Shown here piece after piece: positions 16,068-57,804 of a stretch of DNA of 64,000 bases. The notes beneath the pieces were generated by a model. It ran no database searches. It was not told where the DNA came from and saw only the letters and a program-made list of their open reading frames with translations. The position numbers were made by a program, and so were the translations under genes. Position 1 is the stretch's first letter; every line of letters starts with the position of its first letter. The stretch covers positions 69,316,001 through 69,380,000 of the forward strand of contig CM060732.1 in assembly GCA_030704615.1 (NCBI GenBank), in the 5' to 3' direction. The DNA is from Takakia lepidozioides (taxonomy: Eukaryota > Plantae > Bryophyta).

Positions 16068-16088
16068 AAGAAATGAAAGACATGGGAC

Positions 16089-26692: not shown

Positions 26693-26713
26693 ACCGTGAG
26701 GACACGGCTTTTT

Positions 26714-26726
26714 GAGGGGGAAGGGG
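26714..26726 (+). promoter_or_regulatory. Polypurine tract
   Basis: GAGGGGGAAGGGG 3 nt before the 3' LTR. Confidence 0.85.
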
Positions 26727-26729
26727 TAA

Positions 26730-34395: not shown

Positions 34396-36243
34396 GATTG
34401 TACTCATAAGACGTTGTTTGCCGTAGCCTTGTGGCCCGTGACCCCGCGCCCAGTTTGAGCGGAAACAAAAGGGACAGAACCTACCTCTGTCAGGGGCTGA
34501 CGTTGGTAGTAAGACTTACCTTCGTACATAGAATTAATCCGTGTTTTCCAGATATCCTCTAGAAATCCCTTCACACAAGCATCAATCTGCTGTGTGTGAT
34601 TTGCCCAAAAACTAGGCCTCAGGAGGGCCTGGGCTTTTGGCTCAGCCTCGAGACTTTCAAAGTTGGTAAACAGAGGTACAGGCACAATTCCCTTGATAGA
34701 TTTGAAGAGAGCGTCTCTTTGGTGAGAGAACCCCGGACAGTGTATCAGAAAATGAATACTGTCTTCAGGTTGCCCACACAACGGGCAATTGCACTCGCCC
34801 TTTCCTCTCTGCTTCTGTTTGCTGTTCAAAGGTAGGCTTCCTGCCCTGAGTTTAAATTTCAGTCTAGTGCCGAGAGTGGGTAGACCCTTGAGGTCATCCA
34901 AGATGTCCTCCCCCATGTCACTGACTGGAAACAAGTTCAGGGAAGTTTTCTGCCTAACTTCATTTTCATCAGACAATCTCATGGCAACAGACATGGCTTT
35001 GGACACTACAGCCTCTAAGTCAGAATCATCCAGCAGGGTCAAGACTTGCGGTTCCAGGTCCAGGTCCTTGAGAATCTCTTCTACTCTCTTCTGCCAGGAC
35101 TCAGCCTGTTTGACAGGGCGGTCCTGTTTCCAAGATATAGAGTCCATTAACTTACGATATCTGGTGTTGGACAGATGTTGCAGCTGACCCCACCATCTGT
35201 GACCTTGAATTCATCTCGTCGGGAGCTTAAGGACGGAATGCCAAACTCACCCCGAACAGCCACATTGGCTGTTTTGGAGCATGCTGACATACACTCCTTA
35301 AGCACCCCCACTTGAATGGATTCCAGAGACTTAGCCTGGTTGGAGTTATCAACCCATATTGCAGATCCGTACTCCAAGGCAGGTCTAATAATGCGACAAA
35401 GCATGGTTTTCTTGACCTCAGAGTTGACCCCTCTGCAGTGGAAAAATTTAGTGAGCCCCAGAGCTTTGAACAACTTTCCGGATATGTGCATCCCAATTAC
35501 AATTGGAGGAAAACTCAACGCCCAGGTAAGTGTAGAAAGGGAGGACCGGGATCTCTTGGCTACCCCACTGCCACTTAAGATCACTTCCTCCCTCTCCTCT
35601 GTCGTTGAATGCTACAACTGCATTTGCTGACATTAGCCTCTAGCCCCCAAAGATCAAAGTATCTCTTCGCGCAATCAATCAACTCCTGGAGATTGGTTGG
35701 AGTCTCCCCTATGCCTGCAAAGTCATCCGCAAACATAAGGGCTGGTATGGTGGTATCACCCACCCTTAACCCAAATCCCTCATTTTCCACATCCTCGAGG
35801 AGTTGATTGATGAAAACATTGAAGAGCAGAGGGGAGAGAGTACATCCTTGAGCTACACCTTGGTCTATGTCAAAGAAGTTGGACTTCTGTCCGTTAACAG
35901 TGACACAGCTTTTGGTGTGAGCATACAAGTTGTGGACAACTCTCCACATCTTTCCCTTGATTCCACAAGACCAGAGGCGGAACCATAGGCCATCTCTCCA
36001 CACTGTGTCATAAGGCTTTTTGACATGCAGGAAAAAAACATAACTGGGTTTCCCTTCTTTTTTCCTTCCCTGGATAATCTGGCTTAGAGTGAAGATATGA
36101 TCCACACAGCCCCTGTTTCACCGAAAGCCAGCTTGGCCTTCGTGGAAACAACCTCTAGACTCCAGATCAACCTTGAGACGAGTACTTATAACTCTGCAGA
36201 ATGTCTTGCCAACAGCATTGAGGAGCGTCATGCCACGGTAGCA
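34396..36243 (-). mobile_element. 5'-truncated non-LTR retrotransposon (LINE), RTEX-like
   Basis: YRGMTLL, QAGFR, KxYDTVWRDGLW, GVAQGCTLSPLLF, FADD, YTYLG, IRPALEYG and C-terminal CPLC...EDxxHFLxxCP; several frameshifts. Confidence 0.88.
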
Positions 36244-36259
36244 AAGAAATTTGGTAATT

Positions 36260-37281
36260 GTGCGTTGCCAGTGGGTTTGCTCTCCGTGAAAGCATAGACA
36301 TTGAGGGAGCTGCCCACAACCCTTTCGTATTCTGTTGAGAGCTCCTCCATTTTTTGCTGGAAGGGATACATATTTCTCATTATCCCACTCAGCTGTGGGT
36401 ACCGGAAAAGTTTGCAGCATTTCTTTACATAAGTCTCCATATTTGCGCTTCCCGCATGCGGGACTGCATAAAATACAATGCCCTGTAGCTTTCTGAGAAA
36501 GATCTTTGCAGAGTGGCAGGCTTCTCTGTCGAAGTCATTTAGTGTGGGGTGAGAGCTTCTTCTGTGAGCCTCCACAATCAGTCTCTTGATGACAAGACCT
36601 CCAAAGTTATGGCCGAACAGAACCCTCGGGTTTCGTTTGCCATCCTTCCATCTCCCGCTGCAAAATTGTATAGTGTTAGATTGTGCTGTGACAGCACCGC
36701 ATACAAGGACACTTGATATGCATATGACAGTATATCATGCGGTCCTTCTAATGACAGATCATCCCATAGATTTGTGTCTCTGGTGCTGATTGCAAAAGAA
36801 GAGACAACTCTATGTGCATGTTCCGTAAGTTGGAGATGCTCCACATTAAGCTTCAATCTTCACTTCCAGCCGCATAAATCTAAGTTATAGTTGTTTTTGA
36901 CACACCCAAGCTTGAATCTGATTAGCTGGGGCCCAAGGCCCGGTGAGGGCGTGAATCCAAAGTAAAATTCACTTGACCTGCAACTTGAAAAACAGCATTC
37001 CTTGCCCTATAAGTAATGCAATCAAATCTGGTGATGACTTCCACATGTACACCCCACAGCTTCAATGAGAGGGGCTGGGTATTTAGAGAAAGAGACAGAC
37101 TACCTGTTCACAAAACTCTCTAGAAGGTTCTTGCCAATGTCGCTCACGTCTTTGTTTTCCTCCCTCTGGGCCCATGTGTGCTGCTGCATCGTATGAGATG
37201 GAAAAACACCACATCCAGGCTTGTCTCGTGGGCCTCACCGTCGGGCGGCCATAACTGATGAATCTGCGGTGCGCATTTCAT
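36260..37281 (-). pseudogene. Alpha/beta-hydrolase N-terminal domain of NLR, exon 1 (37281-37104, internally deleted) and exon 2 (36657-~36260)
   Basis: MKCAPQIHQLWPP..LDVVFFH/SYDA..DIGKNLLESFVN|SGRW..VLFGHNFGGLVIKRLIVEA...GIVFYAVPHAGS...VYAFTESKPT; phase-consistent GT-AG intron 37103-36658. Confidence 0.88.
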
Positions 37282-40249
37282 AACAGGTGAAGACAAGTAC
37301 ACAACTTAACTTTTCAACGCACAACAAGACCTCAGCACGTCACTTATTTGGAAGCCAACACGATCTATGCACCGCTGCCGCATTCGCTTTTAGCACCTAC
37401 AGATTAAAGACCATGAGCCTTCCTGAACAGGTTGAAACCTCCTTTGGCCCAGGGGGGTGCTGAAAGTCTGTGTTGAGACGGGCTGACACCAGGAGGTAGA
37501 ACAGCTGCAATGGTGTCGGCATATTCGTCTCTTAAGAAACTCTCCAAGATCGTACTTTTCAGTCCCGCGAATTCATTCTCGAAGAAAATTTTGGACATGG
37601 AGCGATGGAAGCTGACGAGGCTCTGCTTTCTTACATGCTGCAAGCAAGGATCCCTTCGTAATATACCCAGTATAGTTTAGAATCAACATGAATGTACATA
37701 TTATTCACCAAGTCTCCGGTGCTCACCATCGTGCTGGAGATACTTTGCACACTACTGCGGTCTTCACTCCAGAGCGGCTACTACCTCGGTTGTAATTCAG
37801 AACTCGCTTCTGTGAATCCCGCAGGAAAAAACTGTCGTGAGATGCTGTTCTCCTTCCTTTCGTTGGGGCCTTTACTGTGGGCTCCCAGTCTACGGATAGA
37901 GACTGGTACCTGCACCGTGAGGACAGCAGCAGGGAAATCGAAAGTTAAGAATGCTTTTCATTCACTGTCCTTTCTACTTAATATGAGAGCCGTGGGAGAC
38001 ACCGTCTAGTCGACCATTTGGCTTTCCACAGTCTATTTCCATACTGCACTATCTCCAGATTGTGCAGTAATAACTTATCATGAAAACACTCTCTCTACCC
38101 ACAAGTCTCTCTCCAACCTTTGCCTACTCATACAGCTCCACAGGGTTTCCTTACTGATTATTGTCCTGGGAACTTCGTACATGAACGTTTCCAACGCCTC
38201 TCATTTTACAATAATTAGGACGTTGTGGCGCAGGCGCGAGGTGACCGGTGGGCCCCGTGCACGGACGCCCCGCTCCCCCCACCTGGACCCCCCCTGCGCA
38301 AGGTCGCCCAGCTGCTGCCGCGGCCCCAGCAGCCGCGCCCACGGCAGCCCCCCCGCGCCATCAGTCCGCTACCCGTGAGTCCAGTCCACCAAATCGCCAG
38401 TCTGCCGGCCAGTCTGCTGTGCTAGTCCCCGCAAGTCCACCCAAGAGTCCGCTGTGCCCGTCTACTGCCCCCAGTCTGTCAGTCCGCACCGGCCGAAGGA
38501 TCTGGATCGTCCATTCTGAGAAACCCATCCGCGCCATCCATGTTTAGGGCATGGAAGATCGCAACATCCTGCCACGAACTCGCCCCGAACTCGCCCACTC
38601 GTTCTTGTTGTCTCGTTCTTGCGGGCCTTTGCTCTCCAATGTTGCGGAGCTGACTTTGCACGCATGCGGCTGTTCTTCTTGTTTAGGGCGATTTTAATGA
38701 TGATGAAGGGTGTGCCTGAACATGAGAGGGCTGGCGGGGCTCTACAGCCACCATCGTGCATATGCTTCCACTATTTTCACCTTCGTTTTGTGCTGACGTG
38801 CTTATTTTTTAGGACGATATGTGGAAAAATTGCATGCGTTTACGGTTTGTGGTGTGCGAGTCCGAGCTCTTTTTTATGGAGCAGGAAACCATTGGTAACA
38901 TGATAGCGGAAATCGCGGAAGCATATGCACGTGGAGGCGTGTATACATTGCAGAATTTATGTCCACTGATGAGACTGTTCAGAGGAGGACGTCTCTGCCA
39001 CCACATGTCTAGGAACTGCGTAGAGCCTCAAACATCCAGATGCACCTCCTGAAACATCATATCTCAACCACTACCGTCTCCTTGAAAATTGGACAATGGG
39101 AAAGAAGACGTAGCCTGAGAGATGTGGATTCACGTTGCTTCTGGATGTTTGAGGTCTTTACGATTGCAAATGCGTGTGGATCAACAGGCTCTTCAACTGC
39201 GTCTTTGTCAGTACTTTCTCTAAGCAGTGTGTTGTGCATGAGTATGGGTATATGTAAGTCTGCTGGACGGATGAAATGCAACCACGGCATGACGGTGACG
39301 CCAAGCGTGGTTCTGATGGGATATCAGTCTGGTCTGCTGGACTGTTGGTCTGTAGGGATACCAGTCTGGTGTGGCGCGAGTTTGTTCTTCACTGGACTAC
39401 TCGGCCATCACTGCCTGCCGAATTCCGAAGTGTCTTCTCTCGTCTTATCCCCGAAGTCTCTTCTCTCGTCAGTATATTGAACTGTCGGTCAGCTGGAAGT
39501 CCGTCTCTTCGGATATGAGTGCGTTTAACTACTACCATTTAATTATCTGCATTGTCGTGAGTCTGCTGAGCCATCGGACTGCTGGTCTGTCCATCTCTTC
39601 TGATATCAGTCAGCTAGACTGTCACAAAGTCAGTCTGTTGTGGTGCAAGTCTGTTTGCGCTGGGTCTGTTGAGCCATCATTATGATCAAGTGTAAGTCTG
39701 CTGGACCTATCGTGCTCAAATCATTGTGCTTAGGGGTAAGTTTTGTGAATGAGTTCATTTATCTGGTTGTGAAGGCTTTGATTCTAGCATGTGGTAGTGT
39801 AGTGTGGGGAGCAGCTGCAGGGAGGTAGTGTGGGGAGCAGCTGTAGGGAGGTAGTGTGGTGGCGTAGCGTCGCGAGTGTTTGCCTGCAGTACGCGCTAAC
39901 CTTGCTTTGTGCAAGTTGTGTCAAATTTAAAGTATGGTAAAGCTCTGGTCTTCTTTTGTAATTGCTTTGCCAGACTTGTTATCCTTCTCCCATTATTCGT
40001 AAGACTCACTCTCACATGGTGCATCAGTACGTGGACCCAGCTGTTATCTTGTGTGGTGTGCATTGTGTCAGTGCTGATGCAATCGCTAGGGCTTGGCGAG
40101 TTCTTGAAAGTATATCAGGCTGAGCCACGGGTGCTTACAGTCATAGTCAAATATTGTGGTGCAATGTTGTAAGTTCAATTCACTTGTTTATTTATACACA
40201 CTGGGAGAGGTTGTATTAGGTGCCTAGTAAGTGACGAGAGATCAATGCG

Positions 40250-40510
40250 TCGACCCAAGAGCTTTTCGGTACAATTTCACAAGGCTGCCCAGCTGATGTA
40301 GAGCCACTGATGCTTGCAGGTAGCGTATGGCTTTGAAGTTGGGCTCGAAGGCAGCTACCCAACAGCCATAAGGCTGCTGCTATGAGGGAGAAGTATCCAA
40401 CATGTGCGCCACCATCTACCACAAGGGCTTCACCATCGCTACAGCGCCCATTGCCCATAATGTAGTGGAAGATGATTGTCTCAACATGTGACCAGTACCT
40501 CAGACTTCTT
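40250..40510 (-). pseudogene. FkbM-family SAM-dependent methyltransferase fragment
   Basis: ALVVDGGAHVGYFSLIAAAL[fs]GCWVAAFEPNFKAIRYLQASVALHQL...LYRKALG matches FkbM motifs I-II. Confidence 0.75.
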
Positions 40511-41254
40511 ATCTTTCCAGAAATGTCACAATTGCAGTTGCTACAAACGAACATGGAGAACGTTGGCTTGAAGGCTTTAGTGGTTATGACTAATCTGCTC
40601 GTTTTTAATCTTCCAGGGGTATTTTCTTCATCTTGTTCATCTTGAGATTTACATTAGAGAACCGCAGGTATTTAGGTGCCTAGTTAGTGATGCCCCAGGC
40701 AGCTGCAAACCGCGTATTCTGGTGCGCGACTAGATTTCGCTAGAACGGATTTTACCCGGCTATGTAGCTACCACTTATTCAACGCATGCTGCAGGTACCC
40801 TAAGGACGCTAACAAAGTTCTGTTAGCCAAGCAAACTGGTTTGATATGAAGCTAGATAACATTTCATCGCAGAGGGTTTCTTGCTTGCGCTTGACAATGA
40901 GGTATATGCTTGGGTTTTTGTCTGCCAAGGCTGAGTGAGTAGCTTAATAAGCGAGCCAGCGCCCTGCTTGTGTCCGTTGGGAAGCAATCATCGGCGCTCG
41001 TCGGTGACCTTACCGCAATGTTCGATGCACACCAACATACATGTGATTACAACAAGGACTTCAGAGAAGATCGGAGAACTGACCTTAAAGAGAACAAACT
41101 GAGTTCACAGAAATGGGCCTTTTGACTGGTATGTGTAGAATAACTTTGTGGTTGAGCTTCAGAACCACTGTCGTGCGCATACGTATCGCTACACAACTAC
41201 ATCGCTGTCCAAACCACACCACACATATATGCACAATAAAGTAGTCTGCCACAA

Positions 41255-41696
41255 TGAAATGAAAACTAAACTCACACTGTCTCTTGAGACAAAAACACGA
41301 AATACAATACAATCACTCGTTAAAATAAGAGTCGAGCCAGGGGCACCCCAAGCTATGGGGACTCCACCCCACAACATCCTACTCTCCCTCCATAAGTACA
41401 CTCAGATGCTAAGCAGCGAGGGAGCTCGGTCGTGCAGGCTCAACTCGAGAGAGATAAGCCGCACGACTGACGAGCTCGTGAAGATAAGATGATTCAGGTG
41501 TCAAGCTAAACTTGATACCTGACTTAACACTTGAACTAATTCCAAGTGTTAAATACAAATAACTAGATTTATTCTAGTTAGTTTCACACTGTGTTTATTT
41601 AACTTGACAGCTGTCGTGCGCATACATATCGCTACACAACTACATCGTTGTCCAAACCACACCACACATATATGCACAATAAAGTAGTCTGCCACA
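41255..41696 (-). repeat. 3' LTR (442 bp) of the DNMT-Gypsy element
   Basis: On the minus strand it starts TGTGGCAG 2 nt after the PPT AGGGGGGCG and ends TTTCA; sub-segments recur at 41169-41253, 46523-46693 (inverted) and 46694-46859. Confidence 0.85.
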
Positions 41697-41858
41697 ATCG
41701 CCCCCCTAGCTGGTGGTTAGGTCCCTCTAACTCCAGATAGCTACAAGATGTAATAGCCACAGCCGTACTAAGTCCTCTATCACTATCCCTATTGTACTCA
41801 AACTCTATAGACCAAGAGGCCGGGTACAAAAGCAACCCCATGGTTGTATCCACTCCCA

Positions 41859-44800
41859 CTATCCAATGCAATGGGGACATAACCAATCCCCATCAGGAAC
41901 CATTTCAAGAGGTGGAGTCAAGCATCCCATATGCCAACCTCTAGAACATTGATCACACACCAGCATGGTGGCTGCCCCTCTAGCAGACCCACACAACATG
42001 CACCTCAAACTTGCAGGTACCACTGCCAGGTTTGGGTCAACCCTTCCATCAACATTTGGAAGGTGACATGGCGCGCAATTACGCACATGGTCCTTCCAAA
42101 TCATGCCATCCCGACCCTCCAAGATCAGGACTCCTGAGGGCAACACCTCTCGAACCCTCAAAATAGTACGTCCTGCAGTCACATCCAAGGTCGTAGGAGC
42201 AGTCTGCTGCAGATAAACATAGTCACCAGGGTTAAATCTCCGAACCCCAGGACGATAGCCTCACCACGTATGGTAGCATACCTCAACGTATCATGATGTT
42301 GTGCAATGGCAAGGTTCTCGAAAGCCATGGGCATGACTTTCTTGAACAACTCTGCACGCTGATCACATGCACGTGCCCACATGTCCGGATCGTCAGGGTT
42401 GAGAACTGTAGCAGCTTCTCTACGAATGGATGCAGGCAAATCCAGCTCTCAGCCAAAGAGAAGAAAGTATGGTGAGAAGGAAGCAAGTGATGCTTGCTTA
42501 CTGAACATGTAGCCCATGGCTAACCAAGGTAACTGAAGGTCCCAATCTCCTAGGTGTCCCTTCTGCAAGCCATATTTGCGCAAACCCCTCTTCACTGTCT
42601 GAACAACCCTCTCTACCAAGCCATCGGCCTCAGGATGATCCCGAGAAGTGGTGCGGTGGTCTACCAAGGCCTTATCACACAACGCCTGAAACTCCCCCAA
42701 GAACTCTCTCCCTTGGTCCGTGAGTACCTCAGCTCGAGCACCGAATCGGCTAAGTACACAATCCAAGAATGTATACGCAGCCTTATCAGGCAATGGAACC
42801 AACTCGATCCACTTGGAAAAGTGCTCCACCATCACCAACACATACTTGTTGTGGCGCATGGTCAATTGCAACGGCCCTGCAAAGTCAAGACTCCACATGT
42901 AGCCCAATCCTATGATCGGAAGAGGGTGCAATTGTGGTGTAGGGGCGTTGAATGAAGCACGCACCCTGTCACACACCATGCACCTAGCCACAAATTGTTG
43001 CACCTCTATGTGCATACCACGCCACCAATACTGCCCCTGCAGTAGACTATGAATGTGTCGCACCCCAAAATGCCCCAACTCCTCATGGGCATGCCGCACT
43101 AACCGTGCCCGCTGGGTTGGGTGAGGCACAATCCTCACTCGACCATCCTCCCACACTCGGAGTAGGTATGTCCCCTCCCACTTGAACCTCTTGGCTCGTT
43201 GTAGGATCCGATCCCTCTCCTTGGCAGTCACAGTGGCTGTCGTGCCCCAAGTGCGGAGATAGTCCAACACAGCTGAATCCTCATGTATATCTTTGGCGCC
43301 ACCTTGCTCATTGCTGGCCTCAGGGTCCTCAGACACTCGGTCTACACTCATCCCTGTTGTAGGTCCAACCCGGCCTTCCGCTGCCAAGATACACAAAAAT
43401 GCAGATGCATGCCATCCGGGCACCATCTCCTCGTCCGTCTCACCATGCCACCGAGCTCCAGTGTCATCCTGCTGGCCCGTGCATGGATTGCGACTCAACC
43501 TATCCGCATCCCGATTGACCAAACCCGGTCGATGCACAACCTGAAAGTCATACTCTTGAAGTATGAGTGCCCACCGTGCAAGCTTCCCCGTAAGCTTGTC
43601 TGACTCCATCAACCACTTGAGTGGCTGGTGATCCGTGACAAGGGTGAAGAGATTGTCATATAGATAGCACCTGAAGTGTGCCACGGCCCACACTGCATCT
43701 AAGCACTCTCCCTCATATGAGCTATACTTAGCCTCTACAGCGTTGTTCGAGCGACTGACATAAGCCACTACGAACTCTTTTCCCTCATCATCCACTTGTG
43801 TGAGCACCGCTCCAAGCCCCAGCATGCTCCAATCTATATGCAGCTGAAAAGGACGCCCCCTGATAGGTCGTCTCAAGATGGGCGCCGAGGTCAACCTCGC
43901 CTTGAGCTCTTGGAAAGCTCATTCTTGCTCATCTTCCCACTGCCACTCCTGGTCCACCTTGGTCAACTTGGTTAGAGCCTTTGCAATGGCACTAAATCCC
44001 TTGACAAACCGTCTATAATAGTTTGCCAACCCAATGAAAGCTCGAACTCGGCTCACATCCGTGGGGCGTGGAATCTGTGCAATGGCCTCTACCTTAGTCT
44101 GCTGTACCCCCAATCCTCCAGGATATATCATGTGACCCAGATACTCAATCTGGTTGTGGAAAAACTTGCACTTCCCTGGATGTAACTTCAATCCGCGCAC
44201 CCTCAAGCGCTCAAATACCACCTGAAGGTGTCTCTCATGCTCCTCCACCGTAGCACTAAAGATGATGATATCATCTATGTAGCACCGAGCAAACTCCACC
44301 CTGCTAGAATCCTGTCCATGACTCTCTGAAACTCTGTAGGAGCGTTCTTAAGCCCAAATGGTAAGAACCGCCACTGGTATAGGCAATCCTTCCAGTGCTC
44401 ATTGATCCCCCAGAATGTCGTCTTCTGCTTATCCGCCTCCTTGATCGGCAACTGGTGATATTCGGATCGTAAATCCAAAGTGCTAAAGACCTTGGCATGC
44501 CCAATGGCATCAAAGATCTCCTCTGGTGTTGGCATGGCATACCTATCGGACTTGGTCTGACGATTTACAGACCGGTAATCACCGCACATATGTCTCTCCG
44601 TCCAATTGCCATAGACATCCTTCTTGGCTGGCATCACTGTGGCTGAAGCATACTCTCCACCAGATAGCTCCACCAAACCAGCCTCCCAGAGGTCCTGAGT
44701 TCTCATCTGAATCAAGGACCTCTCCATGTCACTGTATCTATAGGGTCTCCGAAAGATTGGCGTGTCAGTGGCCAATTCAATGCGAATCTCTTGACCCTTC

Positions 44801-44868
44801 AGTGCTCCCAAGTCCTTCAACTGAAGGCAAAGCAGTTTATGTAAGCCCTCAAGAACCGCCGTATACAT
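41859..44868 (-). pseudogene. pol: RT, RNase H, integrase and C-terminal PHD finger
   Basis: MCGDYR, LDLRSEYHQ, LPFGLKNAP, YIDD; IDWS/YSSYEGE/TDHQPL; H-x4-H...CxxC and WSLDFAGP; CMLCGSARGAATMLVCDQCSRGWHMGCLTPPLEMVPDGDWLCPHC (C4HC3). Confidence 0.95.
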
Positions 44869-44978
44869 CGTCTCTCTCCTCCGGTGACTATGGGTCCAAC
44901 ATCAGGCTCCCAGTTGTCCTCCGTGACTGCAACCTTGAGTCCAGCAGGCTTAGAGGTAGAAGACGCGTCCCGTGGTTG

Positions 44979-46139
44979 CTATGCTGCAACCTCTTGAGCA
45001 GTGACCACTGCCTGCTCTGTCAGTGACAATGTCTCATCCTGCCCCATCATCCCATCCTTGAGGACCTCCTCAACCCGAGAAAAATCCCCAACCTCATCCA
45101 TCACGGCTGCCTTGGCTGCCAACTCCTTTTGAACCTCGAGCACCTCCCACGTGTGCCATGGATGCGGCCTGCACCTCGTGGTCCTCACCTGTTCGTCCCC
45201 ACACGCTGCCTGTACCGTCTCGGTAGGCAGGGAGACCATCAAGGGAAGTGTACTCCGTACTCGGCGCTGCTCAGCCATAGCCAAGCTGATAATCCAGGTC
45301 AAGCAATTGAGATCCATTGCTTGCCCCAATACCTGACGATGTGATGCCTTAGAAAGAGATGGCACCGCCGTGGTACCAGTGGTAAAACCCATCGCCCGCT
45401 CGCGCTCGTCAGCATTGGGCTCCACTAATTGGTGCAACTGGCTATCCCACAAGAGGCCAGGTCCACCATCCCAAAAAGCATGGGATCCTGGAAAACTGAG
45501 CAGTATAGGCAATGCGGCTCGTGGGTGACCCACCTTATTGACCACTGCCAAAGGTGATCGGTCATCGTGTCTCACACGCTGAGACTGTCTCCCTATGTCC
45601 AAAATGCTATCCACCGTCAAATGTGGTGGCCGTTGCACCCCATCAAATGCACGCTTGAGCAGTGCATGTGGCATCAAGTTGGTCCACCATAGTCGTGGGC
45701 GATGAGCCCGTGACCCCACTGCTGCTGCATCCAGCAACACTGCTAACCCAAGCCAAGACCGCACTTGATGCACACTGGCCATCACCTTGGCCCGAGAATC
45801 ACCCATCAATGGCACATTCTCCAAGATATATGCTGGAGAGTCTGTCTGCTGAAGTTGTAAATAGCGTAGGACCCTCAACATTTCCCAAAACAGGCGTGAC
45901 CTTGAGTCGTGTAACCCATTGCCATGCCCGGCTGATGAATGCCCTTAGCAGGGCCAACCTGCCACTACAAAGTGAATAGGGTCAACCCGCCCCAAACCAT
46001 GCGCCCCCAGCAAAGAGATGTCTGCTGACAATGCTTGTTGGTATCCACGAACTGCAGACACTGGCAACAAATCAGGGTACTGCTGCACCAATTGAGCAAC
46101 ATGACGCAGTGAGACGCGTCGTGCAGTTTCATTTGCCAT
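44979..46139 (-). pseudogene. C5-cytosine DNA methyltransferase domain (DNMT3/DRM-like) within retrotransposon pol
   Basis: ADI (III), VAGWPC*G (IV; TAA at 45945-45947 where Q is expected), GL.D.RS.LF (V), YILENV (VI), DAA.VGS.AHRPRLWWTNL (VIII), ERERAMGF..G.T (IX), RQVLGQAM (X); the two ORFs share one frame; motif I is lost at the rearrangement breakpoint. Confidence 0.92.
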
Positions 46140-46520
46140 TGTTGTGGGACGACATGGAGGAGATGTATGGAGCTACCAAAGGGCCTCGTAGGTACTCTGT
46201 AGCTATGGGCACAATCGAGTTGGATGACTTTATCCAGGAGTTTGACAGCTGGTGTGATTTGCAGCAGATGCGCAATCCACAGCTGTTCACCCTATTCATG
46301 GCGTGGAAGAGACTGTTTCAGCATTTGGAAGGCCCGCCTAAAGACGATTACCACGAGTTCAGGCGAGGACATGAAGCAGAGATTGAGGAGTGAAGGATGT
46401 ATTGGTCACCTGACTACGTCTCCAGTACTCGAGGCACGACGCGACCAGTAGCTGCATCAGCACCAATATCTCCCACTGCCAGCACTAGTAGTGGAACAAG
46501 TAGTGCCGGTACTTCTGCAG
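46140..46520 (+). pseudogene. Inverted gag N-terminal fragment of the DNMT-Gypsy element
   Basis: GPRRYSVAMGTIELDDFIQEFDSWCDLQQ...LFQHLEGPPKDDY resembles retrotransposon gag; it lies between DNMT and LTR parts on the opposite strand. Confidence 0.6.
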
Positions 46521-48138
46521 GTGCTCCCTCGCTGCTTAGCATCTGAGTGTACTTATGGAGGGAGAGTAGGATGTTGTGGGGTGGAGTCCCCATAGCTTGG
46601 GGTGCCCCTGGCTCGACTCTTATTTTAACGAGTGAGTGTATTGTATTTCGTGTTTTCGTGTCAAGAGACAGTGTGAGTTTAGTTTTCATTTCACGAGAGA
46701 GAGATGAGCCGCACGACTGACGAGCTCGTGAAGATAAGATGGTTCAGGTGTCAAGCTAAACTTGACACCTGACTTAACACTTGAACTAATTCCAAGTGTT
46801 AAATACAAATAACTAGATTTATTCTAGTTAGTTTCACACTGTGTTTATTTAACTTGACACCACGTTGTGGGGCACTAATGCATTTGACTATGGCTCTGTA
46901 TGGAGACTTTGGCTCTGGATTTGACTTTGGCTTTGGCACTTGTATGCAGGAGCATTTCTAACAGCGAAGTGCAGCAATAGATCCACCGCAGTTGCTGCCA
47001 CCACACTGAAGCAGGTCTGTCCTTCCTCACAGCTCGGTCTTCTCTTCAAAATCATACTGTTGCCGCGGACTTCGTCCCTGAAAGTTCTATTTCCTTCTAG
47101 GTGGTTGTTTGAGGCTTTGCAAAATGCTCGCCAGCTTGCCAGTGGATTCTCTCTCACCATTTTCGATTTCAACACTTCAACCTTCCTTCAACTTCCAGGA
47201 ATGCCCTAGGCTGGCTCCCGCTTGTATGTTTGAAAGGGTCTATATGAGTCCTCCGACAATTGCGCGAAGTGAGAACAAGTGAGAAAAGACCAAGGTAGAT
47301 GACCATCATTGCTGGATAGGTACTGACAGCCATAAGAAATCCCTTTGACACTCATTCTAGTCAGAATGTAGTCAGAATGGGAATTTTCTAGATCTGAAAA
47401 CAGTGGATCAGTGTAAACATTGAGGGACCCTTTCTCTGTACATTTTCTCTACAAGGGGCATCTAAGACACAACCATTTCTTCAGATGCGGGAACGGAGTC
47501 TCACATGATGAGTCGTGCATTCATGGATGCAACTCGGAGTTCCAGGAGCTGGAGGCAGTACCAACTACAGCTATTGTGGAGGGTCCACTGGAGCCAGCTG
47601 TAGCAGTTTCCTCTCCTTTGCCGGAGGTCTCTGATGAGCCCCTCAAACTCTTTTTCACTGTAGGTCAATTTTTGACAAAGTCTCCATCTCTGCTTTTGCT
47701 TTTATCTTCCTGTAGTGGAGTGTTACAAACTGGAGTTCTGGGTGATGGCTTCAAGGTGAGGTTAAGCATAGTCTTGGAGGTACAGTCCCCTCTTCCCTCT
47801 TCTCTTCTCTCTGGAGATTTTCTCTACAAGCACAAGTTAGTTTGATGATGGTTGCTATGGTTGAGAAATGATTTGTGTAGTGTTTTTGTGTGGAAGCAGA
47901 ATGCAGTTTGTGTGAACAACACCGAATTACCACCATCAACAGCCTCACGGCCATTAGGAGGACGGTGTCCATGATGCACTCTTCCGGCTGTTAGAGGTTA
48001 CTCTTCCTTTCTGCTGCTTCTAGTTGTGTTGTAATCCTATCGAGACACCGTTAACATTGGAATAGGGCCCTGATGCCCGCAGGACATTGCTGGTGCCTGT
48101 TTATTCTTAGTTACAGATTTATGCGTTTGTGGGTAGAG

Positions 48139-51100
48139 TGTTAGAGGACTGTCGGGGACTTAGACACTTATACGGGATCTGTAGGGTACCCTTAATTTTT
48201 GCACAGACTGAGACCAACAGGAGCCTTAGGGGTGACAGCAGCGCACTGTAGAGGGGGGTTACACAGCCCGACACAGTAGTCACAGCCGACACAGCCAACA
48301 CAGCCCGTCACAGTCATCACAGCCGACACAGCCAACACAGCCCGTTACAGTCGTCACAGCAGACACAGCCGACATAGCCCGTCACAGCCATCACAGCCCG
48401 ACACAGCCCGACACAGCCGACATAGCCACACAGCCAGTCACAGCCCGACACAGCCAAACACAGTCGCACAGCCAGTCACAGCTCGTCACAGTTTCACACA
48501 GCCAGTCACAGCTTGACACAGTTGTCACGATCATAGGGAACAGAGAGCAGGACAGGGAACGACTGTGGGGAACAACACCTGCGAAGGGAACATGTTAGTT
48601 CACAGACGACGGTTAGAACCACGGGTAGGAAGATAAAGGGGGAAGGGAGATCATTTGAGGAGGACTTCTTGGTCATGGAGGAGAGGGGATCGGGCAGAGA
48701 TTAAGAACGGAAGTGAAGATAGAGAGATGATGAGTAGATGCTTGTTATATGCAAGGCTGTACTGTAATGATTGTAGAGCAGATTAGAGACACAATGGCTT
48801 CGGCCTGATACCTGATAAATCATACTCGGATACTTTTACGATACAATCACACTGTGTAGAGAGATCTGAGTGAAGCTGTGGAATGAATGGATGAGTTGAT
48901 GGAATCCAATAGATTGATAAAGCAAACTGATACTTAATTATAAATGGTAAGGTAGCTAACATGAATGCCAAAAGGGAAACAAATAGGAATCACCCCCATG
49001 ATACACTAGCTGTAGGTCATGACTGATTGTTCTGCGCGGGCTGAGTACTTAGAGATTTCCAACTCTTCTATCTTGGAGTTTTCGCCTCGAATAGCGAAGG
49101 GATGGGTGAGTAAAAGCAGCGCGACATTTGGCGACCATACTGGGGACCTGAGTCATGAAGGAAGAAAGATTGTCCAAACAATTCTTTCAAAGGTTCTTGG
49201 AATTGCCAGACGGTTGTAAAGAAAATATTCTTAAGCGAGTGCATGATGCTGATCCGGAATGGGGTCTGGAGAAAGGAGTGATAAAGATTTATCAGGTAGC
49301 CTGTAGAGGAAGAGCACGTTGGTTACCAACATTGGTTTATGTGATAGCATTGCTATCCATTAAGCGAGTAGAGTTTGAAGGCTGGGAAGAAAGAAAGGTG
49401 AATGTTTATACTCATATGCATGAAGAGCTTGTACTGGTAAAGAATTGGATTCCAAAAGATATTTTGTGGATCAAACTCACACCAAGAACAGCTTTTCAGA
49501 CTTGTTTGCCATATGGTTATATGGTAACGGAGACTTCAAGTATAGCCAAGGGTGCATTGAAGCTTGAAAGAAACCCAGGCATATACGAGAGATATTACAT
49601 AAGAGAGTTTTGGTTATTGCCACATTAAAAGAAATGAAAGACATGGGACATGAGTGATGAAAGAGAAGCTAGACGCCAGAGATATTCAGCAAAAAGAGAA
49701 AGCTATCTGAAAGCTAATTATCCATATCTTTGGGAGAGAGGAATAGACATAGGGGAATCATCTGGACCTCTCACACCATTAAGATCAAAGAGTACATCAC
49801 CTATACCGGAAGAACTAGAGTTGGATGCCACTCCTTCTGTTTCTTTGCAAGAAAGATTAAGGGAATTGGTACAGGAAGAAGATCAATCACGAGGTGAAAG
49901 ATCTGAGGTACATCCTTGGATAAAAGATTTGACAGAAATCTTTGATAAGAGTTGGCATGGAACACCAAAGCAGGAACTCCAGTTTCTGAAGCAGAAGGTG
50001 AAGAAGGAGAAGAGGATGTGGCAGCCAACGGAGAGTTCAGACTCTCCAACACCATTACAGTTGAGTTACATGAGTGAAGAAGAAACCCAAGGGCAGAACT
50101 TGGGAGGATGAAAACAGAGAGAAGAAATTGGAAGAGGAAGAATATGAAGAAGTAGACCCAACAGCTGAGGTTGAGACTACAACCAGGACATCCCAACCCG
50201 TTGGACCTGGATCAAGTGGAGCACTTGGATCACAGGCCAACGAAGGTGTCGGCTCAGGGGATCAGGCGGGCTGCCTGGATCTGGCTCTGGGGGACAGGGA
50301 GTGTGGGAAGTAGTGCAACTGAAGCTGGGAATACTGTGAATATCGTGGGGCAGAAGGGGAGTGCCAAGCACCAGCAGGGAAGGGCACCAGCAAGGGTGCC
50401 AGCACCTGTCAGTGGGTAGAAGGTAGGGCCACAGATGGCGTTACAACCAACACGGGCAAAACCACCCTTTCCAATATATTCAGGAAAAGGGGATCCCAAT
50501 GTACACATTAGCCAATTTGAGCACATGTGCATAGTGAACAATGAGAATGGCGATGATGCCAAGATGAGACTGTTTCCTTGTTCACTTATCAAGAAAGCAA
50601 GTGAATGGTATGCAAGATTCCCTGATAATCATTTCCTAACCTGGAATGGCTTGAATACAGCATTTCGAAATAGGTTCAGGACAAGTAAAACTGAGGATGA
50701 AGTGTATGGAAGTTTACAACAGCTGAAGCAGAAGAAGCATGAAACTGTTGAAGAGTATATGGAGAAGATGGAATTGATGATGAAAAAGTTGGCTGCAGTA
50801 CCAGCACCCGGTTTACAGAAGACTTGGTTTGTGAGTGGACTAAGACCAGAGTTGCAAAAGAAAGTGGATATGTTACCCCATAATACAGTGGAGGAGGCAT
50901 TTGAAACTGCAAACAGAATTGAGCAATTGGGAATGCTCAGGAGAGAGAAAAAGGAAGATGAGGACTCTGAGGATGAGTCAGATGAAGAAGAAGAGCAAGA
51001 ACTAAAAAGAAAGAGTAAGAGAAAAGAGATGTTGAAGAGGGATAACTATGAAAAAAAATTGGAAGAAATCTTGAAGAAGTATGCCACAGAGGCTGCAACA

Positions 51101-54100
51101 GATTGGAGGAAGGGTGTATGGTGTGCAAAGTGCCAGAATGAAGGCCATACCACCACAGAATGCCACATGAAGGAGAAACACTGTACTATCTGTAAAATGG
51201 ATAACCATTCTACTGAGAATTGTTACTACAACAGAAGGACAGCTGCAAGAGAACCTAGGCAAGTAAGGGTGCATCAGGTGCAGCCCCAGCCAAGAAGAAA
51301 CAATGATCAGGACCACTATGGTAGGTCTGGTGGTTATAACAATGGCATGGAAGGGAGAGGTAATTCAAGAGGGAATTACCAAGGAAATTCCAGAGGCAAC
51401 TATCAGGGTAATCCAAGGGGGAATTACCAGTCCGGGAATCAGGATTATAGAAATAATCCAAGAACAGACCAGGGCGAGGACCCAATGGTGAAGAGCTATG
51501 TTACTATTGTAATCAGCCAGGACATCGCAAGGCAGCCTGTTCATTCTGGATAGACACCAGAATGAGATGAGAGCTCCTGTGAATGAGGGCCCAGTGGTGG
51601 CAGCTCACATGGTTAGGCCATGTGTTGCACCAGAAGTAAGTACAATGATAGTAACAAGAAGTAAAGCCAAACTAATACCTCCAGTAGAAGAGGAAGAAGA
51701 TGATAATGGAAGTGGCAATGATATGCCTGAAGATGAAGAGACTTGGAAAGATGAGAAGGAACTGCACAAGGAAGTGGCAGATACTATAAGGGAAATGCAA
51801 AAGAGTACTGATATTCCTGTGGCAGATTCCTCTGATTCGGATGGAGAAAAAGAAGGGAGTGAGGAAGAAAGGAAGAAAGAAGATGCAGACATGCAAAGTA
51901 ATGAAGAGACTTTGGCTGAAGTAATATGCCAGACCAAAGCAGAAATTACCATTGGACAGCTATTAGCTGTGGCACCTTATTGTAGGCACAGGCTGTATCA
52001 AGCAATCAATCGAATTGCCCAAGAGACAGGAAACACAGACCTGAACAGCAAGGTGACCAGTTATAATGTGAAGCCGGAAAGGCGAGAAACAGTCATGGAC
52101 TTTGATGATTCTATGCCAGTAATCCAATTGAGAATTGGAAGCACAGAACTAACTGATGTACTGATTGATGGTGGTTCTGGAGTAAATATCATGACAGACC
52201 AATTAAGGAAGAAGCTTGGTCTAACTAACATGAAACCAGCCCCATTTACAGTAACAATGGCAGATCAAAGAAGTGTACAGCCATTGGGATTAATAAGAGG
52301 AGTTAAGATACAGATACAGAAGATGATCTTTATGATCACAGTAACTGTGTTGAAAATGGATGAAGTCATGGAGGCTTACTCCTTATTATTGGGACGTCCG
52401 TGGCTGAAACAGGCCAGGGTATTCCATGACTGGAATTCTCAGTTACTAACCGTGCATAATGGGATACACGAGATACAAATTACCACAAAGAAATCTAGTA
52501 GATTACCTGCTACAAGAAGACCTCGAGGAGTCAGAGAGTATGACTGGAAAGGAGGACTGGATGAGGAGCAGGAAGCTACCCTATTTGCTGCACACCCAGA
52601 GTGGGAGCAGGTTGCAGAGATGCGGCTGGAAAGCCTAAGTTGTTTAAGAGGTATCTGCTGTGGTGTAGTGACAGCAACACCAACTGAAGAGGAAACCAGC
52701 ATTTACCCATCACATTTCTATGAAGAAAGAGAAGGAGAAATAGAAATCCTAGAAGAACCAGCCACTTTGAGCTTACAGGATGAAGTGGTGACTGGTTGGA
52801 CAATCACAGCTGATGAGCAGGTGAGGGAAGTGAATGTGGGAACTAAAGAGGAACCGAGGATGGTGAAAGTAGGAGCTGATTTGGAGCCGGAATTCTTCGA
52901 AGAAGCTAAAAGCTTGTTCATCAAATACAGAGATGTATTTGCTTGGAGCTATGAGGATCTAAAAGGGATACCACCTGAAGTCTGTCAGCATAAGATTGAA
53001 CTGGAACCAGGGTCAGTACCAATCAAGCAGGCGAGGTATAGAATGAATCCCAACTACGCACAGAAGGTTGGAGAAGAGATAAAGAAGTTGGTTGAGGCTA
53101 AGTTTATATATCCAATAGAGTATACAACTTGGTTGTCACCCATTGTTATAGTTCCCAAGAAGAATGGCAAACTAAGAGTATGTGTGAACTATAAGAAGCT
53201 GAATGCTTGTACGAAGAAAGATCCTTTCCCTTTGCCATTCACAGAAGCAGTATTAGACACTGTGGTAGGCCATGAGATGTACTCATTCATGGATGGCTTC
53301 AGTGGTTATAATCAAGTGCAAGTGGCAGAAGAAGACCAAGGGAAAACAGCTTTCATCACAGACTGGGGGGCTTATGCATACAAAGTCATGCCCTTTGGAC
53401 TTTGTAATGCACCAGCGACCTTTCAGAGAGTGATAAGTGAATCTTTTCATGAGTATCTGGATGATTTCATGCAGGTATTCTTGGATGATTTCAGTGTGTA
53501 CAGCTCTAAGAATGAGCACTTGCATAAATTGGAGTTATGTTTGGCCAGATGCAGGATGAGAGGTCTGGGCCTGAATCCAGAGAAGTGTACTTTCTGTGTG
53601 AACTCAGGGGTGCTTCTGGGACACATTGTGTGTAAGAAGGGACTCCTTGTGGATCCCAGAAAGACAGAGTCCATTAAAGCCTCTCCACCACCAGTGAATG
53701 TTAAAAGTCTACGGAGATTCCTTGGGCAAACCAGTTATTACAGGAGATTTGTCAAAAGGTATGCACAAATAGCAGCACCATTGAGCAAACTACTGAAGAA
53801 AGATGCAGTGTTTGCCTGGACAGCTGAATGTCAACAGGTATTTGAGGAACTTACACTGTCAGTAACAACTACACCTGTGCTGATTAACCCTCACTGGCAT
53901 GTAGTATTCCATGTTCACTGCGATGCATCAGGAGAAGCGTTGGGAGCGGTGTTAGCCCAGAATGTTACAGGGAATATAGATTCACCTGTATACTATGCTA
54001 GCCGGTTGATGAACAGTGCTGAAAGGAACTATAGCACAACGGAAAGAGAAGCATTGGCAATGATCTATGCAGTGAAGAAATTCAGGCATTACCTGTTGGG

Positions 54101-57100
54101 CAAGAAGTTTATGTTCTATGTGGATCACCAGGCTCTGATATACCTGGTAAACAAACCTCTGATAAGCGGAAGAATAGCAAGATGGTTGATAATCTTGCAC
54201 GAGTTTGAGTTCGAGGTTGTTTACAAGCCTGGGAGACTGCATCTTGTGGCGGATCATTTGTCACGATTGTCAACAGGAGAACCAGCCACATGAATAGATG
54301 ATCAATTACCAGATGCGAGTCTCTTTGCAGTGGAGGTGCAGGGAAGTGCAGATGACTGGTTAGATTGGCAGTGGCCAATCAGATACTACCTTGCTCATGG
54401 TCAGCGCCCACCTAGTTATGGTAAGGAGCAGAGGAAGAGAATCGCTATCAAAGCTTTACCTTATACTATGGTAGGAAGCAGAATGTATAAGTTAGGACCT
54501 GATGGAGTACTAAAACGATGCTTGTACCACCATGAAGTAAATAAAGTTTTGGCGGAAGTTCATAAAGGAGTGGCTGGAGGTCATTTTGGAGAAGAGACTA
54601 CCAGTAGGAAGATACTACTTGCAGGATACTGGTGGCCTACTTTGTTCAAAGATGTACACGAGTATTGTCAGAAGTGTGATGAATGTCAGAGGCTAGGACC
54701 TTTGCAGAGATCTGGAAGGATGGCCTTGCATCCTACAATGCCTACGGAACCATTTCGGAAATGGGGACTAGACTTTGTTGGACCAATTAACCCACCATCC
54801 AAGAATACACGAAACAGGTACATAATTACAGCCACTGATTATACTACAAAGTGGGTGGAAGCTAAAGCTTTGAGGGACAACACAGCCAAGTCCACAGCAA
54901 GGTTCCTGTACGAGAACATACTTACACGATTTGGCTGTCCCTTAGAATTTATCAGTGATCAGGGAAGTCACTTCATGAATGAGACCATTGAGTTGTTGAC
55001 TAAAGAGTTCATGATTGTGCATAGAAAGAGTACAACATATTACCCACAGGGTAATGGGCAGGCAGAGGCTACCAACAAAATACTATGTACTATCTTGGCT
55101 AAGATAGTCAATGCAAACAGAACGGATTGGGATACAAAGCTGCTGACAGCTTTGTGGTCATACATGACTTCATATAAAGTCACCACTAAGTATACACCAT
55201 TCCAATTAGTTTATGGTATGGAAGCCTTACTTCCAGTGGAATTCCTGTTACCTACCATGAGAACGGAGTGGGGAAAGAGAATGGAATTGCAAGACTCCAT
55301 CAAGGTCAGGAAACATGAATTATACCATGTGGAAGAAGTACGTGCTGATGCAGCTGATAATATGACCAGAATTCAGATGAAGCGAAAGGAACAGTTTGAT
55401 GAAGGCAAGTTAAAGACTTTTAAGACGGGGGATTTGGTTCTATGGTTGCAGAAGAAAGGAAAGATTCAAGCTTCTAAGCTCAAATCACCATGGAAAGGAC
55501 CTTATGTCATACAAAAGATGTATGATAACAACACCACCATGTTACAAACCATTAACAAAGAAATGTTGGGAAGAGTCAATGCCAATAAGTTGAAGGGGTA
55601 CAGTGGTATCCATGACAAACCCTTGCAGCATAATTTGCATGTTGAACCGCAAGAGCAGTCACGGGCTGCACCAGTGTTACGAACGGAGTATGAAGCACTT
55701 GTCGCTAGGCCCAATATATATGACCAGGGCGGGCAAAACAAACGTGACACAGCCTATCACAGCCGATCAAGGCAAAGCACAACCTATCACAGCCCATCAC
55801 AACGTGACACAGCCTATCACAGCCCAGCACGGCGCAACACAGCCTATCACAACCTACCACAAAATAGACACGTGGAGGTCAGGGCGCGACACACAGCTGA
55901 GAAGGAAGTGCAAGAACAGGTGTCAAAAAGAAAGAGGACAAGAACGGCCGTCAAAAGGGATGAAAGGCGGGCCCATTAATGAATACGGAAAAAGGGAAAC
56001 GGAACGAACGGCAAGTACAGAAAAGCGAAATTCTTGTCACATGTGTGATCCTAGTGGACTATCCAGCAGGGAAAGTCCACTAAAGAAAATAAAATCTAAA
56101 ATCCAGTCACAGCGGATACAGCCAATAGAAAACCAGAGAAATGATCAAGAAAATGGAGGGAAATTGAGCGTAAGAGGCGGCGTCGTTCTGAGTAACAGGC
56201 GTCTCGACGGGACAGACCATCAATGCTATAGCTTGGAAACTATGGAGGAACTAACAGACTATACGCTCGCAATATTACTTACGCAGTGGCATAGACACGA
56301 AAGGACAGAGCGGAGCTTTTCTCTTGAGCAATGCTTGCAAGCCCCGCAGGCTTACAAGAAATTACCCATAGCTTTCTGCGGCAACCATACGTTTATGCTT
56401 TGTGCACTACAGGCATTCCTGCAGTTGTTACAGCCAAAACAGTTCTGTGAGTCTAAAATGAAGAGAGTGAGAGGAATGGAGGAAATCAGGGTGAAGAGCA
56501 CCACAATTCTGCAGAAACAAACGATTGCTACCCCACAGGCGATACAGATACTGGAGGAGCTGAGATTGCAAGGATTGCAAAGCCTAGATTGGACATTACA
56601 CCATAGACAGTACATGTTACAATTTTTGCAGAACTTTGAGCCAAGGACAGGAACAACAACGGTGAAGGGAGTTGAATTGATGATTACTCCCCTATACCTC
56701 CAGCAATTGTTTCGATTGCCAGCAGGTCAGGTGCATGTGGAGGAACACAGGGCAAGACTGCAAATAGGGGACTTATTCCAAGAAGGGAGTTTCTTTAAAA
56801 CTCAGGGTTATGCTTGTACCAAGGCTGTGTACCCAAGGCTAAAAGAGGTAAGCCAGGTATTGAACGTTCTGATTGCCATGAAACAGAACCAACAGTATTT
56901 GAGCAGATCCTTCACGGAGGAAATACTCAAAGGCCTGAAGGGACAAGAGGTACAATGGGCGGACATAATGTACAACGCACTGGTGGATGAGATGAAAAGA
57001 TTACAAGGTACTACCGCAAAGTCTCCTATCATAGTGTCTGGCCCAATCATTGCTCAAATAATCCTTGATTCTGGCATACTTGATGCGCAAGAAAGAAAGG

Positions 57101-57581
57101 AAATGGGAGTGTTTGAGCCAGAAACCACTGCAATGGAAGAGCAAGGCTCTTCACACAGTGAGGGTGGACTAGCAGGGCAACCCGAGACTAAGAGGCAGAG
57201 ATGGGGAAAGACTGTAGTGGCGGATCCACTGGCTTCACGGATTCCGCATGATAATGTTTCCCAAGCTCATAACCAGGAAGGGGCACAGCAACACAGAGAA
57301 ATGCTATTACTGGAAGCAGGACCTTCAGAGAGGGAGGAGGAAGTTACTTCTGTATCACAACCATCACAGCCAGCTGATCGACTTGTCACAAGGTCACAAG
57401 TTGTCCATGCAGCTCAACCAGAAATAATTGATTTGGAAAGAGAAGGGTTAGATATTCTAACTACAGAACAAATAGTGGCAGAAATGGAGAAGGGGGACCT
57501 TCTCTATGAATATTCTGGTCTGGTCAAGGAGACAGAGATCCCAGAGGTGCAACAGTTGCCCAAGGGAAATCCTGAGGTGCA
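48139..57581 (+). mobile_element. Second copy of the large Ty3/Gypsy element, interrupted within ORF3
   Basis: 5' LTR 48139-49126, PBS, gag and pol (ORFs 50435-51553, 51567-54293, 54330-55979; GGA>TGA stop at 54291-54293), ORF3; collinear with 14507-24265 until cctgaggtgca|cagggttg. Confidence 0.96.
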
Positions 57582-57804
57582 CAGGGTTGCTCACGTCAAT
57601 GACGTCACGTCGGACCTGACGCTGACGCGATCAACGTCACGTCAGTTTGCCGAAAAATCAGTAAAACATGAGTTAGGTGAAACATATGTCACGTAGGTGG
57701 ACACGTTGTATTCCAAGCGACACCTTGGCAAGTGAATGAATTGTTTTATAAATTACTCCATCCGTCAATATTTGAGGTCACTTTTAAATCATTATTGTTA
57801 AATT

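Follow-up and report, generated by a model that had tools for sequence, protein, structure and literature searches.

A DNMT3-bearing Ty3/gypsy element with split terminal repeats in Takakia lepidozioides and its relatives in land plants and green algae

We analyzed a stretch of 64,000 nucleotides (nt) of the Takakia lepidozioides genome (assembly GCA_030704615.1, contig CM060732.1, positions 69,316,001 to 69,380,000; hereafter the window, whose coordinates are used throughout), in which a decayed retrotransposon carries a DNMT3-type cytosine methyltransferase (DNMT) domain ahead of its reverse transcriptase (RT) and a PHD finger behind its integrase (INT). The whole element occupies 41169–46859 on the minus strand and is read here in its own direction. 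It starts with TGTC and ends with GACA (TGTCAAG...CACGACA, hence TG...CA termini), and either flank carries a CCAC target-site duplication (41165–41168 on the left and the identical copy at 46860–46863 on the right, plus strand). Besides the sequence itself, these limits are based on an empty site, as contigs of runs X1 and X3, which represent one sample, join position 41161 to 46859 with eight letters between them. A first-pass annotation of the window had drawn the element at 41859–46139, a span that omits both ends and an inverted gag start. Summed contig depth in run X1 was ~1e6 inside the element versus 200–500 in the flanks; these values do not represent a copy number, but read depth suggests that the element is a high-copy repeat in the Takakia genome.

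When the window was compared with itself, three repeat pairs appeared, two of them direct and one inverted, and the resulting order is A – coding region – purine tract – B – GC – A – B. At the 5′ end, the first 163 nt of repeat A1 (46697–46859, minus strand) are 98% identical to 41447–41609, which is part of the whole, 355-nt repeat A2 (41255–41609, minus strand; delimited by self-comparison and relatives). The second half of A1 is inverted here (46523–46693, plus strand; 98% inverted match to 41255–41425), whereas A1 is whole and direct in relatives. For this reason, an assignment of 41255–41425/46523–46693 as a DIRS-type terminal inverted repeat was rejected. On the other side of the coding region, the polypurine tract AGGGGGGCGA (41698–41707, minus strand) adjoins repeat B1 (41612–41697, minus strand), which is 98% identical to B2, the 3′ end of the element (41169–41254, minus strand; from self-comparison); a G6 purine tract precedes B in relatives as well. 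B1 and A2 meet in the joint CGACA-GC-TGTCA (41605–41616, minus strand), in which two bases separate a repetition of the element's 3′ end from one of its 5′ end. This joint has a palindromic core, recurs in relatives and is the predicted integrase attachment site. The earlier description as a unit bounded by long terminal repeats (LTRs) does not hold: the bounds are split repeats in the form A...B-A-B, with no paired LTRs.

The coding region shows the gag–protease (PR)–RT–RNase H–INT order of Ty3/gypsy elements with a DDE integrase, PR being deleted in this copy and kept in relatives. The TG...CA termini and the 4-bp target duplication also fit this group (4–6 bp), but its paired whole direct LTRs are replaced by A at the left end and B-A-B at the right. 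The N-terminus of Gag lies inverted at 46154–46423 (plus strand; 71% identity to residues 1–90 of Marchantia Mp_4g09160, with a stop at 46391–46393), so that the idea of an element without gag was rejected. All other domains are on the minus strand. The DNMT (45270–46133; translation, Pfam, family profile and a relative's model) shows the motifs GWPC, ENV, HRPRLWWTN, ERERAMGF and LGQAMD in six-frame translation. It is followed by an in-frame TAG and CAA CCA (44973–44981), conserved in position among relatives, which is the predicted readthrough signal ending the Gag-PR-DNMT open reading frame (ORF). Downstream are the RT with a YIDD motif (43919–44900; Pfam RVT_1, E 2e-13 and 2e-14), RNase H (43550–43855; RT_RNaseH, E 1.8e-32), the integrase with an H2C2 zinc finger (E 3e-14), a DDE core (E 6e-11) and a C-terminal part (42179–43120; Pfam and translation), and a C4HC3 PHD finger ending pol (41859–42002; E 3e-11). 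A chromodomain had no Pfam match in the window or in 25 long relatives. A tyrosine recombinase had none in the pol ORFs scanned, which matched rve and H2C2 instead. Both the placement of the methyltransferase 5′ of RT on the same strand and the PHD finger in place of a chromodomain, as read in the first-pass annotation, are thereby confirmed. We are highly confident of the Ty3/gypsy identity and of the anatomy as a whole, that is gag–protease–DNMT3, stop, RT–RNase H–integrase–PHD within A...B-A-B.

This copy is dead and rearranged in its 5′ region. Its RT contains two frameshifts and a stop, its integrase a stop and a frameshift, and in the DNMT both signs of decay reported before were seen, a TAA (45947–45945) after the catalytic PC and the loss of motif I. 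Compared with Mp_4g09160, this copy has lost the protease, motif I and everything in gag beyond its start (~2.4 kb, ~800 codons). Contigs of runs X5 and X7 continue beyond 46132 into different sequence, as expected of copies without the deletion.

Next, we looked at the distribution of related elements. A search with the DNMT returned 36 longer proteins among 2481 candidates (17 from Marchantia polymorpha, one from Calypogeia fissa, two from Sphagnum and 16 without an organism), and M. paleacea, Riccia sorocarpa and Closterium came from a profile search (among 120 of 304 matches listed), with Monoraphidium and Volvox among further profile matches; at E 0.001, the 50% library gave 989 matches. 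No relative of the family was found in viral contigs. The land-plant proteins run from gag through a zinc knuckle and protease to DNMT and then end. Whole gag-PR-DNMT ORFs occur among the Marchantia polymorpha gene models, where they are annotated as hypothetical proteins. The Marchantia V (male) chromosome also carries members annotated as hypothetical proteins (Mp_Vg00370, Mp_Vg00540, Mp_Vg00480 and Mp_Vg00690).

A PHD finger was present in 20/25 long proteins picked from 150 listed; in the majority of the 25, a single ORF holds the DNMT, placed after RNase H and before integrase. This arrangement with a PHD is seen in a large algal-like group (proteins P0058, P0059, P0063, P0075 and P0104; loci L053, L054, L061, L062, L063 and L071); the named members of the group include Scenedesmus, and related matches are named Monoraphidium, Volvox, Cymbomonas and Closterium. 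Some algal-like proteins contain extra domains (Tudor in P0068, G-patch in P0104 and P0221). Among 73 paired DNMT/RT sequences, the DNMT lies before RT in 17 and after RNase H in 56. The window clusters with Marchantia copies in the RT and DNMT trees (support 1.00 in both), and 29/43 splits with support in the RT tree are found again in that of the DNMT, compared with at most two in shuffles. Since the splits recur in this way, the trees indicate that DNMT and RT have long travelled together. No Klebsormidium-named sequence was among the matches from the protein, profile and library searches.

Sequence comparison thus identifies a family and not a one-off capture, with land-plant members in liverworts and peat mosses and distant relatives in green algae. 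The position of the DNMT is shared by the relatives, although searches based on the DNMT cannot reveal DNMT-less copies. An algal origin of the contig, also considered before, disagrees with the Marchantia grouping in both trees and with the neighboring NB-ARC and leucine-rich repeat (LRR) sequences; the flanking NB-ARC falls in Streptophyta clusters in the ESM Atlas. Two features limit this part of the analysis: the RT tree has a single outgroup, and the metagenome scan, which comprises the best 80 of 100 loci (L numbers), includes many loci that represent one genomic position recovered from several assemblies, so that locus counts overstate independence.

The window fragment of the methyltransferase alone matches Pfam DNA_methylase at E 5.4e-4, under the curated cut-off, which is passed by 26/30 relatives scanned; the earlier concern that the domain might find no match is thereby answered. 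The family profile matches human DNMT3A at E 7e-18, M.HaeIII at 7e-8 and a DRM-type entry at 1e-6. The predicted structure of the stop-free domain of L016 (predicted local distance difference test 88, predicted template modelling score 0.89) matches DNMT3A/B/C in all 33 rows listed, with a query template modelling score of 0.66–0.73. The domain is intronless, non-permuted and of DNMT3 class, like that of the KnitGypsy-Dnmt3 type, and the catalytic motifs are complete in stop-free relatives, for example L016, L034 and L035. The ratio of nonsynonymous to synonymous substitution rates (dN/dS), a further check proposed in the first-pass annotation, was 0.10–0.20 in 8/9 DNMT pairs, including 0.12 for a pair with unsaturated dS, which indicates that the DNMT is under purifying selection. 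Saturation of dS in most pairs and the higher value of the young pair L001/L004 (0.53) have to be weighed against this result.

The DNMT and RT share a frame in 31 of 80 metagenome loci, and a stop stands at the end of the linker in 26 of these 31 (20 TAG, 6 TAA); one further in-frame locus carries an insertion that interrupts it, and in four the stop is absent. Because the stop is conserved across the family, the TAG at 44981 was rejected as mere decay. The codon after the stop is CAA or CAG in 25/26 loci, and an exact CAR-YYA hexamer (CAACCA, CAACTA, CAGTTA or CAATCA) is found in seven loci and the window. CAR YYA after UAG is the readthrough consensus of tobacco mosaic virus (PMC2754532). 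It is likely, judging from these sequences, that programmed readthrough takes place, by which the DNMT would be made together with Gag and Pol in a minority of products. The loci lacking a stop (L052, L057, L058, L080) and the CAACCC that follows the stop in 17/26 loci, one base from the consensus, argue against it. The conserved stop also weakens, for the land-plant clade, the earlier idea of a single polyprotein combining a methylation writer with a histone reader; distant algal-like members do have both domains in one ORF. In the land-plant clade, protease cleavage would likely separate the DNMT from the PHD as well.

Regarding the function of these two domains, we propose that the DNMT, abundant in the particle, would methylate new cDNA at CG, and that the PHD would bias insertion to chromatin with unmethylated H3K4, a pair of roles for which we see the balance as even. 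Alternatively, and with somewhat lower probability, the DNMT could have a job other than marking cDNA, either methylating the target site or host DNA after integration or acting as a non-catalytic DNA-binding or particle component. Such a role would be compatible with the two different positions of the DNMT within the family, before RT or between RNase H and integrase; the catalytic motifs are kept, and activity is predicted from them. In yeast, the dinoflagellate DIRS enzymes methylated CG, whereas the Klebsormidium DNMT gave no methylation, a result called inconclusive by its authors that nevertheless counts for the alternative and against our proposal (PMC5890265). In favor of cDNA marking, the land-plant DNMT ends the Gag ORF, which predicts its excess packaging beside the cDNA. 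CpG is also depleted in 7/7 elements measured (observed/expected 0.27–0.76), though host methylation explains this depletion equally well.

The solved PHD fingers nearest to those of the family belong to CHD4, PHF12, KDM5B/A, ATXR5, DPF3 and PHF21A. Several of these read unmethylated H3K4, and readers of this kind lack a cage tryptophan at the second position ahead of the zinc histidine and have an acidic residue before the first cysteine. In the family, the cage position is Gly or Ala in all 30 alignment rows. The acid before the first cysteine is present in several algal-like rows and missing in the land-plant ones, which is at odds with this mode of reading. As a moderate guess from sequence, the PHD might steer insertion away from H3K4me3.

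The unusual repeats are not restricted to the window. The A...B-A-B layout was found in L025, L056, L037/L039 and L052/L057, and A...B alone in L014, L015, L017, L055 and L066. Among 11 loci with both ends, the 4-bp target duplication is exact in five, matches at three of four positions in four and is unclear in two. A tRNA primer site was rejected, as TGG follows 0/19 A1 ends. Instead, the 11 nt after A1 could pair with a stretch of A (9–11 of 11 positions complementary) in 11/16 loci, compared with at most 2.5% in controls, and in the nine loci with a TATA called nearby this primer complement lies 24–33 nt downstream of it. The primer sites of three subfamilies differ in sequence, and in L034, of a fourth subfamily, a perfect arm of 16 nt lies 26 nt past a TATA. 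Self-priming through a site complementary to the 5′ end of the RNA is known from Tf1, Tj1 and Tcn1 (PMC4600332, PMC6317226), and we consider it quite probable that readthrough and self-priming both operate in this family. The poor primer complement in 5/16 loci and the inverted arms without TATA in distant contigs (L054, L071, L080) speak against such priming. In the window copy, the primer site is disturbed, and the A1 inversion breakpoint lies at the predicted position of primer and primer site. At the first inversion breakpoint (46523–46700), the predicted 11-nt primer is fused to sequence complementary to the end of A, just as it would be in self-primed minus strong-stop DNA. This breakpoint may be a priming fossil or a template switch at the inverted repeat.

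The seam between A2 and B2 joins the base preceding the primer site to the base following the purine tract (one base short in L037). At the other joint, the 12-mer CGACAGCTGTCA is exact in six and present with one mismatch in three of 80 loci; each of these loci has it once, on the sense strand and invariably past the PHD, and the rest of the 686,014 bases lacks it. Four of the six exact loci are distant RT-RH-DNMT-INT elements (RH, RNase H), whose RT pieces are mostly <50% identical.

The likeliest explanation is a replication cycle in which the palindrome would be cut inside the element's own reverse-transcribed repeat. The RNA would start ~30 nt past the TATA in A1, and ribosomes would mostly halt at the UAG to give Gag-PR-DNMT, with a minority reading through into Pol. 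The first ~11 nt of the RNA would prime the minus strand just after A1, as in Tf1, and the purine tract before B would prime the plus strand, so that the copied terminal repeat is B-GC-A; ordinary LTR reverse transcription applied here would yield the cDNA [B-GC-A]-coding-[B-GC-A]. The A|B seam seen after integration would then arise from joining of the two cDNA ends. Subsequently, the integrase would nick after CA on both strands of GACA-GC-TGTC, giving CA-3′OH ends with 2-nt overhangs, the type used by integrases, and would insert them with a 4-bp stagger. A two-repeat circle with its upstream palindrome opened would give A-coding-B-A-B, and a one-repeat circle A-coding-B. The cycle would be completed by cDNA methylation and PHD-guided insertion as described above. 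We favor this explanation as a whole with moderate confidence, and the end joining and palindrome cutting taken by themselves with slightly less. Two observations weigh against these latter steps. As a free two-repeat circle contains two identical palindromes, copies of the form A-B-A-coding-B are expected, but this prediction failed, with A-B-A left ends in 0/19 cases. Furthermore, B1 and B2 could recombine to give A-coding-B copies equally well. The contigs L071 and L080 are circularly permuted but were left out as evidence of real circles, because repeat collapse during assembly looks alike.

The lack of A-B-A left ends would be accounted for by DIRS/PAT-like copying, a less likely but still live alternative that produces the A...B-A-B and A...B forms only. 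Here, the RNA would start within A1 and stop within B2, both ends would be rebuilt with the internal B-GC-A joint as template, and the integrase would trim the two terminal joint copies on linear cDNA, with no end joining. The layout is that described for DIRS elements (PMC5890265), and the A|B seam is nearly identical in L025, L028, L056 and the window, which is more precise than ordinary end joining. However, with the primer site right after A1, minus-strand synthesis would begin where A ends, and B2 could not be copied from RNA; neither does this route predict a seam at the boundaries of primer site and purine tract. We regard it as very improbable that an ordinary LTR element with the DNMT as a passenger was scrambled by nested insertion, recombination or misassembly: the 5′ region of the window copy is indeed rearranged, with breakpoints seen in the assembly alone, but layout, palindrome and target duplications recur across independent subfamilies, the empty site exists, and the DNMT is conserved and tracks the RT tree, which contradicts this view for the family.

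Cutting of circles by a DDE enzyme has precedents. In IS3/IS911, such an enzyme cuts the circle junction and inserts the ends. Similarly, foamy virus integrase cleaves the palindromic junction of 2-LTR circles (PMC1180852). Both systems cut the circularization seam, whereas the cut predicted for the bryophyte family falls within the copied repeat, at a distinct palindrome that is encoded in the genome. Tentatively, and a little below even likelihood, the cycle proposed here could extend to a green-lineage clade of integrase elements from chlorophytes to liverworts and peat mosses, in which the attachment site moved to mid-repeat and integration proceeds from circles, as in IS3-type insertion sequences; a DNMT3 packaged at Gag level would methylate the new copy, possibly also at the CG of the palindrome, which could determine the choice between the two palindromes for cutting.

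Most Tf1/sushi and Tcn1 elements contain a chromodomain. They and the bryophyte family share the self-priming mode, but Tf1/sushi and the plant chromovirus Tcn1 have two whole LTRs, no DNMT3 and no split repeats (PMC6317226, PMC4600332). The closest known system is KnitGypsy-Dnmt3 of Klebsormidium nitens, which combines the Gypsy domain set and an intronless, non-permuted DNMT3 under purifying selection with DIRS-like repeats (de Mendoza et al. 2018, PMC5890265). In that element, the Pol ORF that encodes RT and RNase H also contains the DNMT, whereas in the bryophyte family the DNMT ends the Gag-PR ORF at a readthrough-type stop, in the same frame as RT. The accessible description of KnitGypsy-Dnmt3 mentions no PHD, land-plant copies, target duplication, priming mode or attachment site (PMC5890265). 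Both are the same kind of element, and shared descent is likely. SymbioDIRS-Dnmt3 and other split-repeat DIRS elements resemble the family in the A-coding-B-A-B layout and the DNMT3 domain but use a tyrosine recombinase in place of the DDE integrase, TG...CA ends and 4-bp target duplication (PMC5890265). PHD fingers were previously known in Ty3 elements (also bioRxiv 2021.11.30.470311) and were proposed as insertion guides in Chlamydomonas Gypsy-7a_cRei and REM1, for which the accessible sections describe no DNMT; Gypsy-7a has near-complete paired LTRs (PMC9940879, PMC6673714). The EpiLTRs of Cymbomonas and Euglena also unite a DNMT and a chromatin reader in LTR elements, but their enzyme is DNMT4-related, accompanied by an adenine methylase and a chromodomain, and they are described as distinct from Gypsy-DNMT3 (bioRxiv 10.64898/2026.05.21.726589). 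DNMT3 elements are mentioned in "streptophytes" in the accessible text of two sources that name no land plant there (PMC12344493, bioRxiv 10.64898/2026.05.21.726589), and the accessible parts of PMC11982613 and bioRxiv 363937 do not mention the family. In the literature covered, which excluded most subscription papers and Repbase, we found no paper on the bryophyte DNMT3-Gypsy family, its readthrough, priming or internal attachment site. New here are the self-priming-type site after A, the purine tract before B and the B-A joint palindrome conserved to algal-like elements.

With these results, the range of Ty3 elements that carry a DNMT3 grows from a single alga to land plants, among them the model Marchantia polymorpha, in whose existing methylation mutants the question raised in 2018, how a retrotransposon uses its own methyltransferase, can now be tested. 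The end structure, absent from the first-pass annotation, is in our opinion the most interesting part; we infer its mechanism, while the domains and the land-plant range are solid. The proposed cycle would explain in concrete terms how an integrase element can come to have DIRS-like repeats, a layout so far unexplained, and if circles are indeed the substrate, the view of LTR circles as dead ends fails for this clade. In practical terms, LTR finders that depend on two LTRs likely miss the family or misplace its bounds, and its DNMTs can inflate counts of host methyltransferases.

Finally, we considered the neighborhood of the element in the window. The context of nucleotide-binding leucine-rich repeat (NLR) genes noted earlier is real, with an NB-ARC ORF at 27951–28793 (Pfam E 2e-34) and LRR exons at 10995–13996, whereas the KP4 context was not recovered among the 28 flanking ORFs scanned, which cover part of the window only. 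A different large Ty3 element, which has ACAGCC-type tandem repeats in its long LTRs and extra ORFs past pol, is present in two copies (14500–27600 and 48100–58000) that are 93–99% identical. The first of them sits between the LRR exons and the NB-ARC ORF and likely splits an NLR gene. At 34404–36734 (minus strand), a LINE-type RT fragment is found beside a GHxxGG alpha/beta-hydrolase-like ORF, which has no Pfam match and which we take to be of the kind capping some bryophyte NLRs. An ORF fragment with the motif VVDGGAHVGYFSL, without a Pfam match and presumably resembling an FkbM-type S-adenosylmethionine-dependent methyltransferase, lies 500 bp from the insertion site (40216–40653, minus strand). 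The ORFs at 59581–62613 (minus strand) contain a SWIM zinc finger (E 6e-4) and possibly represent a Mutator-like DNA transposon.

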